The translations under genes and the position numbers were made by a program. Under the pieces are notes generated by a model. That model was not told the origin of the DNA and did no database searches. It saw only the letters and a list, made by a program, of their open reading frames with translations. This document shows positions 15,531 through 21,999 of a stretch of 30,845 bases of DNA, piece by piece. Positions within the stretch are counted from its first letter, which is position 1. The number at the start of each line of letters is the position of its first letter. This stretch comes from an uncultured Hyphomicrobiales bacterium (GTDB taxonomy: Bacteria; Pseudomonadota; Alphaproteobacteria; Rhizobiales; Kaistiaceae), in the NCBI GenBank assembly GCA_964407155.1, contig CAYOUO010000050.1, forward strand, positions 1 to 30,845, written 5' to 3'.

Positions 15531-18281
15531 TTAGGCGGCGGCGGGCCGCTGCAACGGCAGGACGACACCGGTGAGTGCGACCGCCGCTACAAGGTAGGCG
15601 CCGCCGCTCATGTCCAATACGGCGGAGAGCCCCCACGCGGTGGCGATGAGGGGAACGGCGGCGGCGCCGATGACGGAGAAGCACCCGTTGATACCCCACG
15701 CCCAGACGAACATGTGGTCCTTGCCGAGGCGGCCGAGGGTCGTCATCGCCGTCGGCATCGGGAAGCCCATCAGGAAAGCCGGTGGAGCGATCAGCAGGAA
15801 GGCGGCGGCGAGCCGCGGTCCGTAGGCGAGCGTCCCGATGAAATCGAGCACGCGGTCGAGGAACAGCCCGTAGCCGATGAGGAGCGCGGCAATCAGCACG
15901 AAGATCATCGGCATGACGGTTTTCAGACGCGGCAGCACGCGTTCCGACAAGGCGCTGCCCAGCCCGGAAAAGACGAGCATGCCGGTGATCAGGATCGAGG
16001 CGGAGACGGTGGGATTGGCGAGCGCCTGTACGAACTTCGCGATGAGGCCGACCTCGACGGCGATATAGCCGAGGCCGAGGCAGCCGAAATAGACGATCGT
16101 GCGGAACTTGCCGGGATTGTAGCGGAAGATCGCGCGCCAGCCGAAGATCAGTGGCAGCAGCACGAGGATGAAAGCCGCAATGCAGGCGATGCCGAAGGTC
16201 GCCCAGACGGTGAGATAGCCCCACTCGTCCTGCAGCAGGTCAAGCCGGTCGGTGACGCGAGGAAGATCACGCGTCTTCACGTAGGCTGCGAAGTACGGGC
16301 GGTTGTTGGTGAGCGGGCGCGTGTCGAAGACATAGCGCCTGGCGATGTCGTTCCAGCCGCCGTCGATCAGATAGTGCCAGGCGAGCTGGTCCATGACGGT
16401 CGCGGGCACCGCGGTGGATTCGTCGGGAGGCGAGGGCGCGGCTGCGTTGCCCGGGGCGGAAGCAGCCGGCTGGTCGCCGTTCGGGTTGACGTCACCGTTC
16501 TGGCCCGTGTCGCCGTTCGGATCGACCGGTGAACCTGCGGATTCGCCGCCATTGGGGCTGACCGCATCGCCGCTCGGCGGCGCGGTTTCCGACGACAGCG
16601 CGCCCGGAGGCGTCGGATCGCCGGTTCCGAAAATCGCGTTGCGGAATCCTTCGAGCGTGGCGTCAGTCTGCTTTTCGTCGAACGTCGCGCCCGGATAGTA
16701 AATCTCGTCGAACGACATCGCCGTCGTGTGCTTGCGGAGTGCCGCGATCTCGTCGGACGTGAAGCCACCGCGCTCGTAGAGGACGGTCGTCGTCGACAGG
16801 TAACTCGAGGTGACGAAGAACGATTGCGCGAGATGCGCCGGGTCGGCGAGACGCGCCGCCGCGACCATGGTGGCATAAAGCTTCAGCACCGACTTCGGCG
16901 GCTCTTCCTTGTTCCACAGCGTGACCGACAGAATGCCGCCGTCGGCGAGCGCCCTCATGTAGTCCAGCATCGCCTCGCGCGTGTAGGCGAACTTCTCGAC
17001 GATGGCGAAGCCGCCGGGATTCGAGAGGCCGGCGGAATCGGCGAGGCTGAGATCGATGACGTCGAAGCGCTGGTCCGTGTTGGCCAGGAAGAGGCGACCC
17101 TCATAGGGGATCACGGTGACGCGCGGGTCGTGCAGGATGTCGCCGGTGAATTTTCTGAGATCGGGATCGTTCAGGAAGGTATCCAGGACGGCGGGGTTCG
17201 CTTCGGCAACGGTCACCGACTTCGAGCCGCTGCGCAGTGCCACTGCGGTCGAGATGCCGCCGCCGAACTGGATGACGAAGGTCTTCGGGTTCTGCTTGAC
17301 GACGTAGGGATAATACATCGGCAGGAAACGGAAGTAGGCGGTCTGGTCGGACGGCAGCGCGCGCATGACGCCGCTCGGCCCTTCGCCGTCGATGTACATG
17401 CCGAGGTAGGCATTCTCCGGCACCTCGGGCAGGTTGAAGGCGGCATTGTCGGAGAGGCCGGGGGCGAAGTGGAGGTAGGAGCTGCCGTAAAGCTCGAGCT
17501 CGCCGAACGGCGAATGGTTTTCGTAGACGCGATGCGCGTCGGGAAACTTGCGGGCGTAGGCGACGCCCTTGTAGTCGGAGACGGCCAGCTTCTGGATGCC
17601 GAGGAGCGGCGGCAGCGCGAAGTGGCCGGCAAACGCGACGACGGCGGCAAGCAGCGCGATGGCGAGACCCGCAGTGCTCTTCAGCCGCAGCAACCACGCC
17701 GCGCAGGCGACCAGCCAGAGCGCCAGCGGGACAACGATGAGGTTCTCCGGCGGGAAGACATACATCGACAGCAGGAAAATCAGGCCGGAGACACCGGCGC
17801 CGGCGAGATCGGCGAAATAAACGCGGCCGAACGCCGTGCGGCTCTTCAGGAAGACGATGCCGAGGAAGAAAGCACCGGTAAGGAACGGCAGCAGGTAAAG
17901 CAGGAAGTTCGCGGCGAGACGCCACTTCTGCGCCGGGTCGGAGACGATGAAGATGGCGTTGAACGGGAATTGTTGCGCAAGGAGGTTCGCGCCGACGGTG
18001 AGCGGACCGAACAGGATGAGAGCAGTCGCCGCCGAACCGCGCCAGTGGGTGTCGAACCAGCGTTCGGAAATGCACATCACTGCGCTGGCGAGACCGAAAC
18101 CGAGGAGGGCGAGGCTGACCACCAGCGAGCCGAAATGCGCCCAGCTGCCGACCGAGAAGATGCGCATGATCGCGATCTGCAGCGCGATGACTGCGCCGGC
18201 CGAGCAGCCAACGGCGAGGTAGAGCGGGAGCGATGGACTGGCGCCGGACGCTGGGCCGGCAGCCGGTGCAACTGCAGTCAA
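15531..18281 (-). CDS. Polytopic membrane protein (~7+7 TM) with central spermidine-synthase-like class I SAM-binding domain
   Basis: TTG start with GGAG ~10 nt upstream. Two similar hydrophobic halves flank a soluble domain with [21 protein letters not shown] and [10 protein letters not shown], plus a Pro/Gly/Asn-rich insertion. Confidence 0.85.
16473..16526 (-). repeat. Three imperfect 18-nt tandem repeats encoding [18 protein letters not shown]
   Basis: Plus-strand units gtcgccgttcgggttgac / gtcaccgttctggcccgt / gtcgccgttcggatcgac; units 1 and 3 are 16/18 identical. Confidence 0.85.
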
Positions 18282-18314
18282 GTTGGACGGGCTCCGGCCG
18301 ATGCGCGGCTCCGG

Positions 18315-19190
18315 TCAGGCACCATTGTGGGTGCCGACAATCCGGTCGCCTTCCAGCTTGGTGAATGGCACGAAGGGAACGACCGCGCCGCCGTAGATAT
18401 CGGAACGGGCGACTGTGAGCGTGCCGTCGGTGCCTTCGTTCTTCACGATCTTCAGGACGTGCTGGGCGCCGGGCGGGCCGACCGGAATCGCCATGACGCC
18501 ACCGGTGCTGAGCTGGCGCAGCAGCGGCGGCGGAACATGGTCGATGCCGCAGGTCACGATGATCTTGTCGAAGGGAGCATTCTCCTCCCACCCGTAGTAG
18601 CCGTCGGCATTCCTGGTCGTGATCGCCTTGTACTCCGTATACCCACGGGCGATCAGCGAATCGTATACACCCCGGGTGCGCGCTGCGAGACCGGGGATGA
18701 TCTCGATCGACCAGATTTTGTCGGTGAGGTTGGAAAGATAGGCCGACTGATAGCCGGAGCCGGTGCCGATCTCGAGCACCTTGTCGCCGCGTCTGACGTC
18801 CAGCGAGTTGGTCATGCGGCCGACGGTATGCGGGCCGGTGATGGTGACCCCGAACCCGATGTCGAGGTGATGCCACTCGTAGGCCTGGGTGAGATTGGCC
18901 TTCGTGACGAATTCCTCGCGTGGCGTCATCAGGTAGGCGCGCTCGTCCTTCGCGTCCCAGACGTCATGGTGGGCGAGCATCGCCTGGTAGCGGTCGAAGC
19001 GCTGGCCGAGGAAATCCGGGTCTTCGCCGCGGTTGGCGACCATCCATGCAATGAAGTTCGCCCGCGAATCGGTCGGAGGCGTCGCGTTCCAGTCGTACGG
19101 CCGGGGAACGTTGGCGCGCGCTACCGCCGGCACAAAGGCCGTAGCGAGCAGGGCGGCCGTTCCCGCTTTCAGGAAATCCCGTCGGTTCAC
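18315..19190 (-). CDS. Tat-signal protein-L-isoaspartate O-methyltransferase homolog (paralog 1)
   Basis: MNRRDFLK Tat motif, h-region and ARA cleavage site. PIMT motifs TITGPH, KVLEIGTGSGYQ, SIEII, DGYYGW..APFDKIIVT, QL..GG.M.IPVG and FVP. Confidence 0.92.
   Translation of the reverse strand: MNRRDFLKAGTAALLATAFVPAVARANVPRPYDWNATPPTDSRANFIAWMVANRGEDPDFLGQRFDRYQAMLAHHDVWDAKDERAYLMTPREEFVTKANLTQAYEWHHLDIGFGVTITGPHTVGRMTNSLDVRRGDKVLEIGTGSGYQSAYLSNLTDKIWSIEIIPGLAARTRGVYDSLIARGYTEYKAITTRNADGYYGWEENAPFDKIIVTCGIDHVPPPLLRQLSTGGVMAIPVGPPGAQHVLKIVKNEGTDGTLTVARSDIYGGAVVPFVPFTKLEGDRIVGTHNGA
18556..18625. repeat. 70-bp perfect inverted repeat, copy A (partner at 20534-20603)
   Basis: Reverse complement equals 20534-20603 exactly (cgatcacgaccaggaat...gacaagatcatcgt); both flanking bases mismatch. 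Confidence 0.92.
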
Positions 19191-20844: not shown

Positions 20845-20937
20845 CGCCGGAGACGGGCACGCCGGACGGCCGAAACCGCGCGACCCCGATTGTGATATCG
20901 TGTGCGCCAAGGCGGCGTGAAACGGGCGAAGGCGTAT

Positions 20938-21999
20938 ATGTCTTTCTGTCGGCGCAGGGCCGGGCTGGCGCTGGCGGCGGTGCTGGCTGCCAATGCGGGC
21001 GGCGCTTTGGCAAGCGGCGCGCCGGATGTCCTCAGACCGCCGTTTCCCCGCGTTTCGCCGGTCGATCACGCGTCCGGCCGGGAAGCCACAATGAAGGATG
21101 CGGATCGCACCAGGCTCGGGCCTCTTGCCGCCGGCCGCAGTACGATCGTTCCGTTCGTCAACTCGCCCTTTCCCTACGAGGGCCTCATCCCGAAAAAGGA
21201 GACGCCATTTCTGGACGTCGCGGAAGGAGGCCGACGGGGGCACACCTCGGTACGTGCCGGGGTCTACTGGGAGGATGAGAGCTACAGCGACCGCAGCGTG
21301 CTGATCGCGTTTCCCCGGGGTTTCGATCTCCGCAAGCCGGCGGTGATGATCGTCTTCCTGCACGGCAACAACGCGCTGCTCGAGCGGGACGTCGTATTGC
21401 GGCAGCAGGTCGTCGATCAGGTCGAGGCGTCCGGCCTCAACGCGGTTCTGGTTGCCCCGCAGCTTGCCCACGATGCGCAGGATTCGAGCGGCGGCAATTT
21501 CTGGCGGCCGGACTTCTTCGCGCGCTTCCTGAAGGAAGCAGCGGTGAAGGCCGCACGGTTTTATGGCGCACCTGCATCCGCCGCAGAGTTCGAGCGCATG
21601 CCGGTCGTCCTGGTTGCCTACAGCGGTGGCTACAATCCGGCCGCTTATGCGCTTGCGCTCGGTGGGGCCGGCCACCGTGTCCATGGGGTCATTCTTCTCG
21701 ACGCGCTTTACGGCGAGGAAGACAAATTCATCGACTGGATCGAGCGCGCGCGGCGCTCGGCGTTTTTCCTCAGCGCGTATTCGCTTTCGTCGGCGGACGG
21801 CAACGGCGATGTCGAAGCGGAGCTCAAGGCCGAGCATTTGGATGTGACCGACACGATGCCCCGCCGCCTCACAGCGGGGACAGTGACGTTTATCGCGGCG
21901 ACCGACCCTTCGATCGTCCACGACGATTTCGTTACTGCCGCGTGGGTGCCACAGCCGCTGGCGTGGGTGCTGTCGCACGTACCAGGGTTTCCGCGCTAG
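20938..21999 (+). CDS. Exported alpha/beta hydrolase-fold protein
   Basis: N-terminal RRR plus hydrophobic segment ending ALA; VFLHG; nucleophile elbow AYSGG; candidate acid LLDAL; candidate His IVHDD. Start uncertain (GTG 20902 is an alternative). Confidence 0.8.
   Translation: MSFCRRRAGLALAAVLAANAGGALASGAPDVLRPPFPRVSPVDHASGREATMKDADRTRLGPLAAGRSTIVPFVNSPFPYEGLIPKKETPFLDVAEGGRRGHTSVRAGVYWEDESYSDRSVLIAFPRGFDLRKPAVMIVFLHGNNALLERDVVLRQQVVDQVEASGLNAVLVAPQLAHDAQDSSGGNFWRPDFFARFLKEAAVKAARFYGAPASAAEFERMPVVLVAYSGGYNPAAYALALGGAGHRVHGVILLDALYGEEDKFIDWIERARRSAFFLSAYSLSSADGNGDVEAELKAEHLDVTDTMPRRLTAGTVTFIAATDPSIVHDDFVTAAWVPQPLAWVLSHVPGFPR

Follow-up and report, generated by a model that had tools for sequence, protein, structure and literature searches.

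We analyzed a 30,845-nucleotide stretch of DNA from an uncultured Hyphomicrobiales bacterium (Kaistiaceae; assembly GCA_964407155.1, contig CAYOUO010000050.1), referred to below as the window, in which a cluster of five genes encodes two exported relatives of protein-L-isoaspartate O-methyltransferase (PIMT), a large membrane protein that we call MEM, and two further exported proteins. An earlier note on this DNA, made from the sequence alone, had read the cluster as a five-gene, envelope-directed system for periplasmic methylation or isoaspartate repair that depends on S-adenosylmethionine (SAM). All five open reading frames (ORFs) were found in the ORF list of the window, which has a G+C content of approximately 65%. 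The leftward operon encodes, in order, an exported protein of 181 amino acids (aa), PIMT1, and MEM, with gaps of 25 and 33 nt between genes, and the rightward operon, on the other side of a 210-bp spacer, encodes PIMT2 and then an alpha/beta-hydrolase. The features of the cluster are the following.

15531 to 18281, minus strand: MEM, a polytopic membrane protein of 916 aa with seven transmembrane (TM) helices, a soluble domain, and seven more TM helices (from the ORF, hydropathy, and an AlphaFold model)
18315 to 19190, minus strand: PIMT1, an exported PIMT paralogue of 291 aa (PF01135, E value of 1.8e-39, 136.1 bits)
19113 to 19190, minus strand: predicted twin-arginine signal peptide of PIMT1, MNRRDFLKAGTAALLATAFVPAVARA, read from the sequence, with a basic residue in the c-region
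19216 to 19761, minus strand: exported protein of 181 aa at the head of the leftward operon, with a signal peptide and two Cys residues
19762 to 19971, no strand: divergent intergenic spacer between the two operons, 210 bp
19972 to 20844, plus strand: PIMT2, an exported PIMT of 290 aa (PF01135, E value of 5.7e-44, 150.8 bits)
19972 to 20046, plus strand: predicted twin-arginine signal peptide of PIMT2, MNRRQFLLSSSAAMAAGLVPSLGRA, read from the sequence
20902 to 21999, plus strand: exported alpha/beta-hydrolase (serine esterase), accessory in this clade, with a probable start at 20938

Both PIMT proteins score far above the PF01135 gathering score of 20.3, and they are 71% identical to each other. 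PIMT2 aligns with Escherichia coli Pcm (PDB 3lbf) with an E value of 5e-34, over a region that includes SAM motifs I, post-I, II, and III as well as the T-I-S-x-P motif of the active site. Its active-site motif is the canonical T-I-S-G-P-H, while that of PIMT1 reads T-I-T-G-P-H, with Thr replacing the usual Ser. Conservation of the catalytic and SAM motifs is at least 95% across 82 family sequences, in which the active-site position is occupied by Ser in 77 members and by Thr in 5, PIMT1 being among the latter. Since the Thr residue is shared by just 5 of the 82 sequences, the two paralogues in the window may differ in activity or substrate. With all PIMT catalytic and SAM motifs intact and near-invariant, the exported PIMTs are predicted to be catalytically competent. 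In the alpha/gammaproteobacterial clade, the PIMT also carries a conserved N-terminal extension of approximately 45 residues. A search with the exported PIMT further identified chain t of PDB entry 8qby as a PIMT-family match; we take this entry to be a structure of respiratory complex I, and if that is right, membrane complexes can recruit proteins of the PIMT fold.

The earlier note had assigned both PIMTs to export by twin-arginine translocation (Tat). As marks of a Tat signal we took the motif (S/T)-R-R-x-F-L-K, an h-region of moderate hydrophobicity, and an AxA site for cleavage, and the N termini of PIMT1 (MNRRDFLKAG...AVARA) and PIMT2 (MNRRQFLLSS...SLGRA) have these features, with scores just below threshold for the Pfam TAT_signal family (21.1 and 19.3 bits, respectively, against a gathering score of 22.7 bits). 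A genome scan anchored on PIMT returned at least 568 homologous loci, and we analyzed the best 80 of these; in 77, an AxA cleavage site comes after an RR-x-F-(L/I/V) motif in the PIMT. Two close gammaproteobacterial PIMTs have Lys-rich signal peptides of the general secretory (Sec) type instead, and the more distant PIMTs from metagenomes, which are 235 to 260 aa long, have classical Sec signal peptides. Predicted export signals are therefore found family-wide, and because the distant PIMTs use Sec, it is export that is conserved, while the Tat signal, which the note had treated as a feature of the system, is particular to this clade.

We also noted two PIMT genes with unusual 5' ends. One close homologue (locus L060, positions 9926 to 10100) has no recognizable hydrophobic signal, which might reflect a degenerate copy, a frameshift, or a fault in the assembly. 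In Paraburkholderia (locus L165, positions 3182 to 3865), the RefSeq start of the PIMT removes the signal peptide, and the in-frame upstream sequence reads MLRWLRTLIPAIALVWMSSGVHA|ADDF. Start sites set incorrectly in this way may hide the exported nature of the PIMT family in databases.

MEM was described in the earlier note as a protein of approximately 14 TM helices with a SAM-binding-fold domain, and this description holds, since hydropathy and the AlphaFold model (pLDDT of 68.7) agree on 14 TM helices and the domain has a spermidine-synthase fold. In the model, TM helices 1 to 7 occupy residues 18 to 42, 47 to 71, 73 to 102, 116 to 146, 148 to 175, 183 to 199, and 203 to 227, and the soluble region between the two 7-TM blocks is approximately 455 residues long and lacks cysteine. 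MEM can be divided into the following parts.

17592 to 18281, minus strand: MEM residues 1 to 230, TM helices 1 to 7, with the N terminus predicted to be cytoplasmic (AlphaFold; Lys and Arg bias of 10 versus 2)
16224 to 17591, minus strand: MEM residues 231 to 686, predicted periplasmic domain with an aminopropyltransferase/class I SAM-binding fold (Foldseek; hidden Markov model [HMM] alignment; Lys and Arg bias)
16413 to 16622, minus strand: MEM residues 554 to 623, a Pro/Ala/Ser/Gly-rich low-complexity linker of variable length within the periplasmic region (pLDDT below 50; no conserved columns)
15531 to 16223, minus strand: MEM residues 687 to 916 and the stop codon, TM helices 8 to 14 (AlphaFold; conservation)

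In all 15 of the close relatives that we compared, the side of the membrane that holds the N terminus has 9 to 17 Lys and Arg residues and the other side has 1 to 4, and the large MEM loop lies on the side poor in these residues. The prediction for the soluble domain is thus a periplasmic rather than a cytoplasmic location, which it would share with the exported PIMT.

When the MEM domain was compared to the PDB with Foldseek, the top 48 matches were all spermidine synthases, with E values of 1e-5 to 2e-4 and TM-scores, normalized to the target, of 0.40 to 0.53; the AlphaFold model used for this comparison is of moderate confidence in the soluble domain. An HMM alignment to Thermus thermophilus SpeE (PDB 1uir) places a GGG loop at residues 340 to 342, Glu360 at the end of strand 2, an Asp or Glu at position 394, and a D-x-x-x-x-D motif ending at Asp415. 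The Gly-rich loop of MEM reads GGGIS, with Ile343 and Ser344 conserved in the close clade, so that the acidic residue of the GGG(D/E)GG motif is replaced by Ile. In aminopropyltransferases such as Thermotoga maritima SpeE, this acidic residue selects decarboxylated SAM (dcSAM) over SAM. Among 93 family members that are approximately 25 to 100% identical, 76 MEM columns are at least 90% conserved, and these are spread over the Rossmann domain and the two TM blocks, with none in the linker. Within the domain they include G340, G342, E360, R396, E429, Y433, T434, E436, and W456, and the superfamily-invariant residues of the C-terminal part (687 to 916) include Glu743, Pro841/Pro843, Trp860/Trp862, Asn865, and Ser869.

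MEM has no match to a Pfam family, and the SpeE domain of Pfam is hit at 17 bits where 22.9 are needed. Its matches to the NCBIfam polyamine aminopropyltransferase models are also weak (residues 309 to 528, 22 to 26 bits, compared to cutoffs of 260 to 472). The superfamily is large: 8,156 clusters at 50% identity match with an E value of at most 1e-3, and 2,106 of them with an E value of at most 1e-30. Many members are approximately 800 aa long and share the architecture of MEM at 28 to 35% identity. In one distant member (P0448), the N-terminal half matches the membrane domain of PRK03612, the "membrane-bound spermidine synthase," with an E value of 1e-17. DRxxR-like loops and a weak BLAST match of TM4 to TM12 also led us to consider MEM as a 6+6 protein of the major facilitator superfamily (MFS) type with an inserted hairpin, an idea that we dropped because a profile-profile comparison of the two halves (given below) was not significant.

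We found that the exported PIMT and MEM are linked well beyond this locus, and that they are so from either starting point. Of the PIMT-anchored genome loci, 77 are informative for MEM, and in 67 of these, from Alpha- and Gammaproteobacteria, a MEM gene lies directly downstream of the PIMT gene on the same strand. When distant MEM relatives (approximately 30% identical) in metagenomes were used as the anchor instead, 62 loci had enough upstream sequence, and the gene directly upstream of the MEM relative encodes a PIMT on the same strand in 58 of them, with a median gap of approximately 48 nt. The co-occurrence of the two proteins therefore holds in both directions and across deep divergence. 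At the distant loci, no neighbor recurs beyond the PIMT-MEM pair itself. Thus, the conserved core is a two-gene module, an exported PIMT followed by MEM, which is narrower and much older than the five-gene system first proposed. Tat targeting with the approximately 45-residue extension, the esterase, and the second PIMT copy are additions specific to this clade or locus.

Taxa with PIMT-MEM pairs include Roseiarcus, Dongia, Bauldia, Reyranella, Prosthecomicrobium, Devosia, Methylocapsa, Rudaea, Rhodanobacteraceae, and Cellvibrionaceae. The PIMT, MEM, and esterase genes overlap or abut in Rhizobiales GAS113 and Mesorhizobium loti, with overlapping start and stop codons. On plasmids of Paraburkholderia and Microvirga, the pair stands alone between insertion sequence (IS) elements, which suggests that it moves as a self-contained cassette; the Prokaryotic Genome Annotation Pipeline (PGAP) names one of the two plasmid genes "protein-L-isoaspartate O-methyltransferase," the other "SAM-dependent methyltransferase." The transposase genes on these plasmids are of the IS5, IS110, and IS6 families (positions 253 to 1350 of L165, a plasmid of Paraburkholderia sp. 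PGU19, and positions 2007 to 3032 and 6991 to 7689 of L167, a plasmid of Microvirga sp. VF16).

The recurrent neighbors in the close clade are limited to the esterase and, in one group of metagenome-assembled genomes (MAGs), an L,D-transpeptidase. The gene for this YkuD-domain protein lies directly upstream of the PIMT gene, on the same strand, at 29 of the 80 loci, and at paralogous PIMT loci without MEM the PIMT gene lies between an L,D-transpeptidase gene and the lipopolysaccharide-heptose genes GmhA/HldE. This context hints at a link to the cell wall, although the transpeptidase linkage, being confined to one related MAG group, may be simple synteny. The transpeptidase gene is approximately 200 to 600 nt ahead of the PIMT start, which is at position 10001 (loci L010, L014, L017, L020, L021, L023, L025, and others; also L029, L053, and L074). 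In M. loti (L082, positions 2260 to 3861, minus strand), a gene for a 533-aa protein with a Tlde1 (L,D-transpeptidase-like effector) domain lies immediately upstream of the PIMT-MEM-esterase operon and is divergent to it. At approximately seven distant loci (including L086, L090, L091, L094, L097, and L113), AmmeMemoRadiSam-like genes precede the pair, with Memo-like and radical-SAM identities assigned by eye only.

The other two proteins of the cluster are of more limited distribution. The hydrolase has no Pfam or NCBIfam family match, and the note's description of an exported alpha/beta-hydrolase is borne out by other evidence: an H142-G-N oxyanion motif and a Ser229 (in YSGGY), Asp255, and His328 triad that are invariant in 38 sequences, an AlphaFold model (pLDDT of 85.7) for which the best Foldseek match is 1gkl (E value of 1e-8) and which resembles feruloyl esterase, S-formylglutathione hydrolase, and esterase D, and Tat-like or Sec signal peptides on its homologues. 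Its start is probably at 20938, judging from the length of 353 aa of a homologue with 99% identity. The gene directly follows MEM at 31 of 64 close, PIMT-anchored loci and is absent from the distant metagenome loci. The esterase may act on a methyl ester or a succinimide. The 181-aa exported protein has no Pfam or NCBIfam match and no homologue among 160 related loci; a 182-aa gene occupies the equivalent position in the nearest relative only, and the protein is thus outside the conserved module. Of the five-gene system, then, the PIMT-MEM core stands, with the esterase as an accessory and the 181-aa protein as a gene that is not conserved.

The earlier note had also placed the genes around one divergent promoter. 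The 210-bp divergent spacer is present, but we found no sigma-70 consensus promoter in positions 15300 to 22300, no SAM riboswitch or other Rfam element in or near the spacer, and no EcfG (general-stress) motif, GGAAC-N16-17-CGTT, in the spacer or upstream of PIMT at any of the 80 loci. Since the spacer contains none of these signals, the promoters are deduced from gene arrangement only. The sole Rfam match in the window is a tRNA gene at positions 14084 to 14157 on the minus strand (RF00005, 66.8 bits), between a histidine-kinase gene and pobA. The flanking genes are unrelated housekeeping genes (for YidC, a histidine kinase, PobA, an ABC-2 exporter, and choline-kinase-like, dimethylglycine-dehydrogenase-like, and adenylate cyclase proteins), and on the contig of the nearest relative the five-gene block is the same and the flanks are different. 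Long ORFs of 583 to 853 aa that overlap the cluster (16728 to 19289, plus strand; 17101 to 18876, minus strand; 20413 to 22164, minus strand) have no family support and were rejected as artifacts of the high G+C content.

The idea of the earlier note is partly supported: judged by the points that the note had named as refuting, it survived, since export signals and SAM motifs are conserved, PIMT and MEM co-occur, and the literature search returned no account of the module. From the gene content, export signals, catalytic motifs, predicted topology, and linkage described above, we infer that the locus may encode an extracytoplasmic system for the repair, or modification, of isoaspartyl proteins, with a proposed role for MEM in handling SAM and S-adenosylhomocysteine (SAH); we put the probability of this reading at roughly 45%. 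In the proposed mechanism, the PIMT would reach the periplasm through Tat in this clade, and through Sec in most relatives, and would there methylate the free alpha-carboxyl of L-isoaspartyl residues that build up in long-lived envelope proteins and so start their return to normal aspartyl residues via a succinimide. By the general view, ATP and SAM are absent from the periplasm, and we know of no established SAM-dependent periplasmic enzyme. The cytoplasm is the only place where SAM is made, and porins would let it escape from the periplasm. We therefore propose that MEM would carry SAM through the membrane and keep it in the periplasmic domain until it is handed to PIMT, and/or retrieve SAH; a direct hand-over would avoid the loss of SAM through porins. 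Given that MEM is a near-obligate partner of PIMT and that PIMTs exported by Sec would arrive without SAM, a cofactor provided by MEM is the most economical answer. A more specific form of this proposal is that MEM is the first dedicated periplasmic SAM device, an exporter or a SAM/SAH exchanger whose SpeE-like domain would pass SAM to a docked exported PIMT, and we hold this form to be less likely than not, though its chance is appreciable.

Several observations weigh against a repair system supplied by MEM. A role of MEM in SAM supply or SAH removal is a reasonable inference and no more, and the periplasmic location of the soluble domain is itself a prediction. A PDB sequence search with the MEM profile returned weak SpeE matches and no solved transporter, and the TM halves of MEM match no Pfam family, transporter families included, even at an E value of 10. 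Alignments of the N-terminal and C-terminal halves with hhalign, built from 42 and 93 sequences, gave E values of 0.45, 0.52, and 0.08 in inconsistent registers, so that no significant internal repeat was detected. The complete and strongly conserved nucleotide-binding-type site of MEM fits a carrier no better than it fits an enzyme. In the PIMTs, scores fall below the NCBIfam equivalog cutoffs for canonical Pcm, at 137.9 and 144.3 bits compared to 159.05 for TIGR00080 and at 161.5 and 169.2 bits compared to 188 for NF001453, which makes them a subfamily separate from canonical Pcm. The linkage also has exceptions, with no MEM nearby at 10 of the 77 PIMT loci and, at the remaining metagenome MEM loci, a PIMT on the other strand at 1 of 62 and no PIMT at 3 of 62. 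Lastly, hydrolysis of isoaspartyl methyl esters by the esterase would make repair futile. Of the loci that have MEM alone, we noted that L143, L147, and L158 are low-G+C metagenome contigs with a full-length MEM relative (816 to 842 aa) and no PIMT in the available flanks, and MEM can thus occur without an adjacent PIMT.

A different explanation, which we consider on the unlikely side but worth serious attention, is that MEM is itself a periplasmic, membrane-embedded transferase of methyl, aminopropyl, or aminocarboxypropyl groups. PIMT and MEM would then form a two-enzyme pathway that covalently modifies a single target in the envelope, for example a peptide of peptidoglycan, a lipid-linked intermediate, or a particular protein, and does not serve generic repair, with the cosubstrate reaching the periplasm via the TM domain of MEM or by another route. 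The SpeE-like domain retains the Gly-rich loop, the acidic ribose-binding residue, Asp/Glu394, Asp415, and more active-site-like invariant residues; the N-terminal seven TM helices are homologous to those of the PRK03612 "membrane-bound spermidine synthases"; PGAP labels relatives "SAM-dependent methyltransferase"; and the L,D-transpeptidase and GmhA/HldE neighbors hint at a tie to the cell wall. However, no candidate substrate gene is conserved with the PIMT-MEM pair, the transpeptidase linkage that would point to the cell wall is limited to one MAG group and may be synteny, and the PIMT retains all features of true isoaspartyl-specific enzymes. In addition, MEM has Ile in place of the GGGDGG Asp that is characteristic of dcSAM-specific aminopropyltransferases.

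The earlier note had offered, as an alternative to SAM delivery, that the PIMTs leave via Tat preloaded with SAM for one turnover each; in that case, MEM would be unrelated to SAM supply. Tat does export folded, cofactor-bearing proteins, and this clade has switched to Tat. In contrast, distant PIMT-MEM pairs use Sec, as do two close gammaproteobacterial homologues, and because Sec substrates cross the membrane unfolded, they cannot bring SAM along. Preloading is therefore disfavored as the general mechanism; it also leaves the near-obligate linkage to MEM unexplained, and we judge it improbable.

We give equally little weight to the idea that these PIMT homologues form aspartimides in a ribosomal peptide that is secreted, in the manner of ribosomally synthesized and posttranslationally modified peptides (RiPPs). 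The pathways for graspetides and lanthipeptides are known to include PIMT homologues (PMC8939145, PMC9811515), and the PIMTs of the window have weak matches to the models TIGR04188 and TIGR04364. These matches are well below threshold, however, at 88 to 106 bits compared to cutoffs of 320 to 380, and the 160 related loci contain no ATP-grasp, lanthipeptide-synthetase, or conserved precursor gene. To our knowledge, the characterized RiPP methyltransferases act in the cytoplasm. Finally, the reading of the PIMTs as ordinary cytoplasmic Pcm proteins next to MEM by chance, with signal peptides that are annotation artifacts, has in its favor the TAT_signal scores below the gathering threshold and is effectively refuted by signal peptides with AxA sites in well over 100 homologues from independent lineages and of two export types, as well as by the linkage, which holds at 67 of the 77 PIMT-anchored loci and 58 of the 62 MEM-anchored ones.

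In the open-access literature, we found no paper that describes the PIMT-MEM module, an exported PIMT, the MEM family, or a bacterial periplasmic SAM supply, a result that is absence of evidence; the papers that looked promising concern cytoplasmic pcm or make no mention of pcm. The pairing, which implies SAM-dependent chemistry beyond the cytoplasm, is thus undescribed in the literature searched; in our reading, isoaspartyl methyltransferase repair would have been relocated out of the cytoplasm together with a new membrane partner. A PIMT that is systematically exported, by two pathways, with its SAM and catalytic motifs intact challenges the picture of a periplasm free of SAM. If MEM is the SAM device proposed above, diderm bacteria would have isoaspartate repair for their envelope proteins, and the MEM family would serve extracytoplasmic methylation in general. 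If the repair reading is correct, it would help to explain the upkeep of long-lived envelope proteins in slow-growing soil and sediment bacteria. A function would also be gained for a very large family (thousands of clusters at 50% identity) whose members are now labeled "spermidine synthase," "SAM-dependent methyltransferase," or hypothetical. Because the module is present in cultured, tractable bacteria, including M. loti, Rhizobium jaguaris, Microvirga, Paraburkholderia, Prosthecomicrobium hirschii, and Roseiarcus fermentans, the question is directly testable.

Compared to known systems, the exported PIMT is closest to canonical Pcm (PF01135, EC 2.1.1.77), a repair methyltransferase that ordinarily acts in the cytoplasm, with which it shares a core that is approximately 35 to 40% identical, the T-I-S-x-P-H/Y motif, the SAM motifs, and a C-terminal FVP(L/F). 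It differs in its cleavable signal, the N-terminal extension of this clade, and equivalog scores below the cutoffs. The context is also different, as enteric pcm lies in surE-pcm-nlpD (PMC2736372, PMC5442454), while the exported PIMT is encoded with a dedicated membrane partner. The PIMT homologues of RiPP pathways share the superfamily and the chemistry, a methyl ester and then a succinimide, and differ from the exported PIMTs in the scores of the latter, which are far under the TIGR04188 and TIGR04364 cutoffs, in gene neighborhood, and in export. MEM has the fold of SpeE (PF01564) with aligned nucleotide-binding strands, and the N-terminal seven TM helices of its relatives match the membrane domain of COG4262/PRK03612. 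Unlike these proteins, it scores below threshold, has a GGGIS loop, a domain predicted to be periplasmic, and a second 7-TM block, and is linked to PIMT rather than to speD or polyamine genes.

For the proposed supply of SAM, there is a functional precedent in plants, where Golgi methyltransferases need the dedicated SAM importers GoSAMT1/2 (10.1101/2021.07.06.451061; PMC9946043). The need for SAM in a carboxyl methylation outside the cytosol, which in that case is pectin methyl-esterification, and the use of a dedicated importer would be common to both systems. The GoSAMTs belong to the MFS and have no SAM-binding-fold domain fused to them; we detected no homology between them and MEM and no MFS signature in MEM. 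The closest bacterial analogy would be MsrPQ, in which a soluble repair enzyme exported by Tat works with a membrane partner that brings reductant derived from the cytoplasm (PMC10653988; 10.1101/243626). The analogy to PIMT-MEM is one of logic and would be functional only, since there is no relation in sequence or fold, the commodity is electrons in the one case and SAM in the other, and the partner is a heme-binding protein of 6 TM helices rather than one of 14 TM helices with a Rossmann-type domain. If the substrate is indeed isoaspartyl protein, PIMT-MEM would be the aspartate and asparagine counterpart of MsrPQ.

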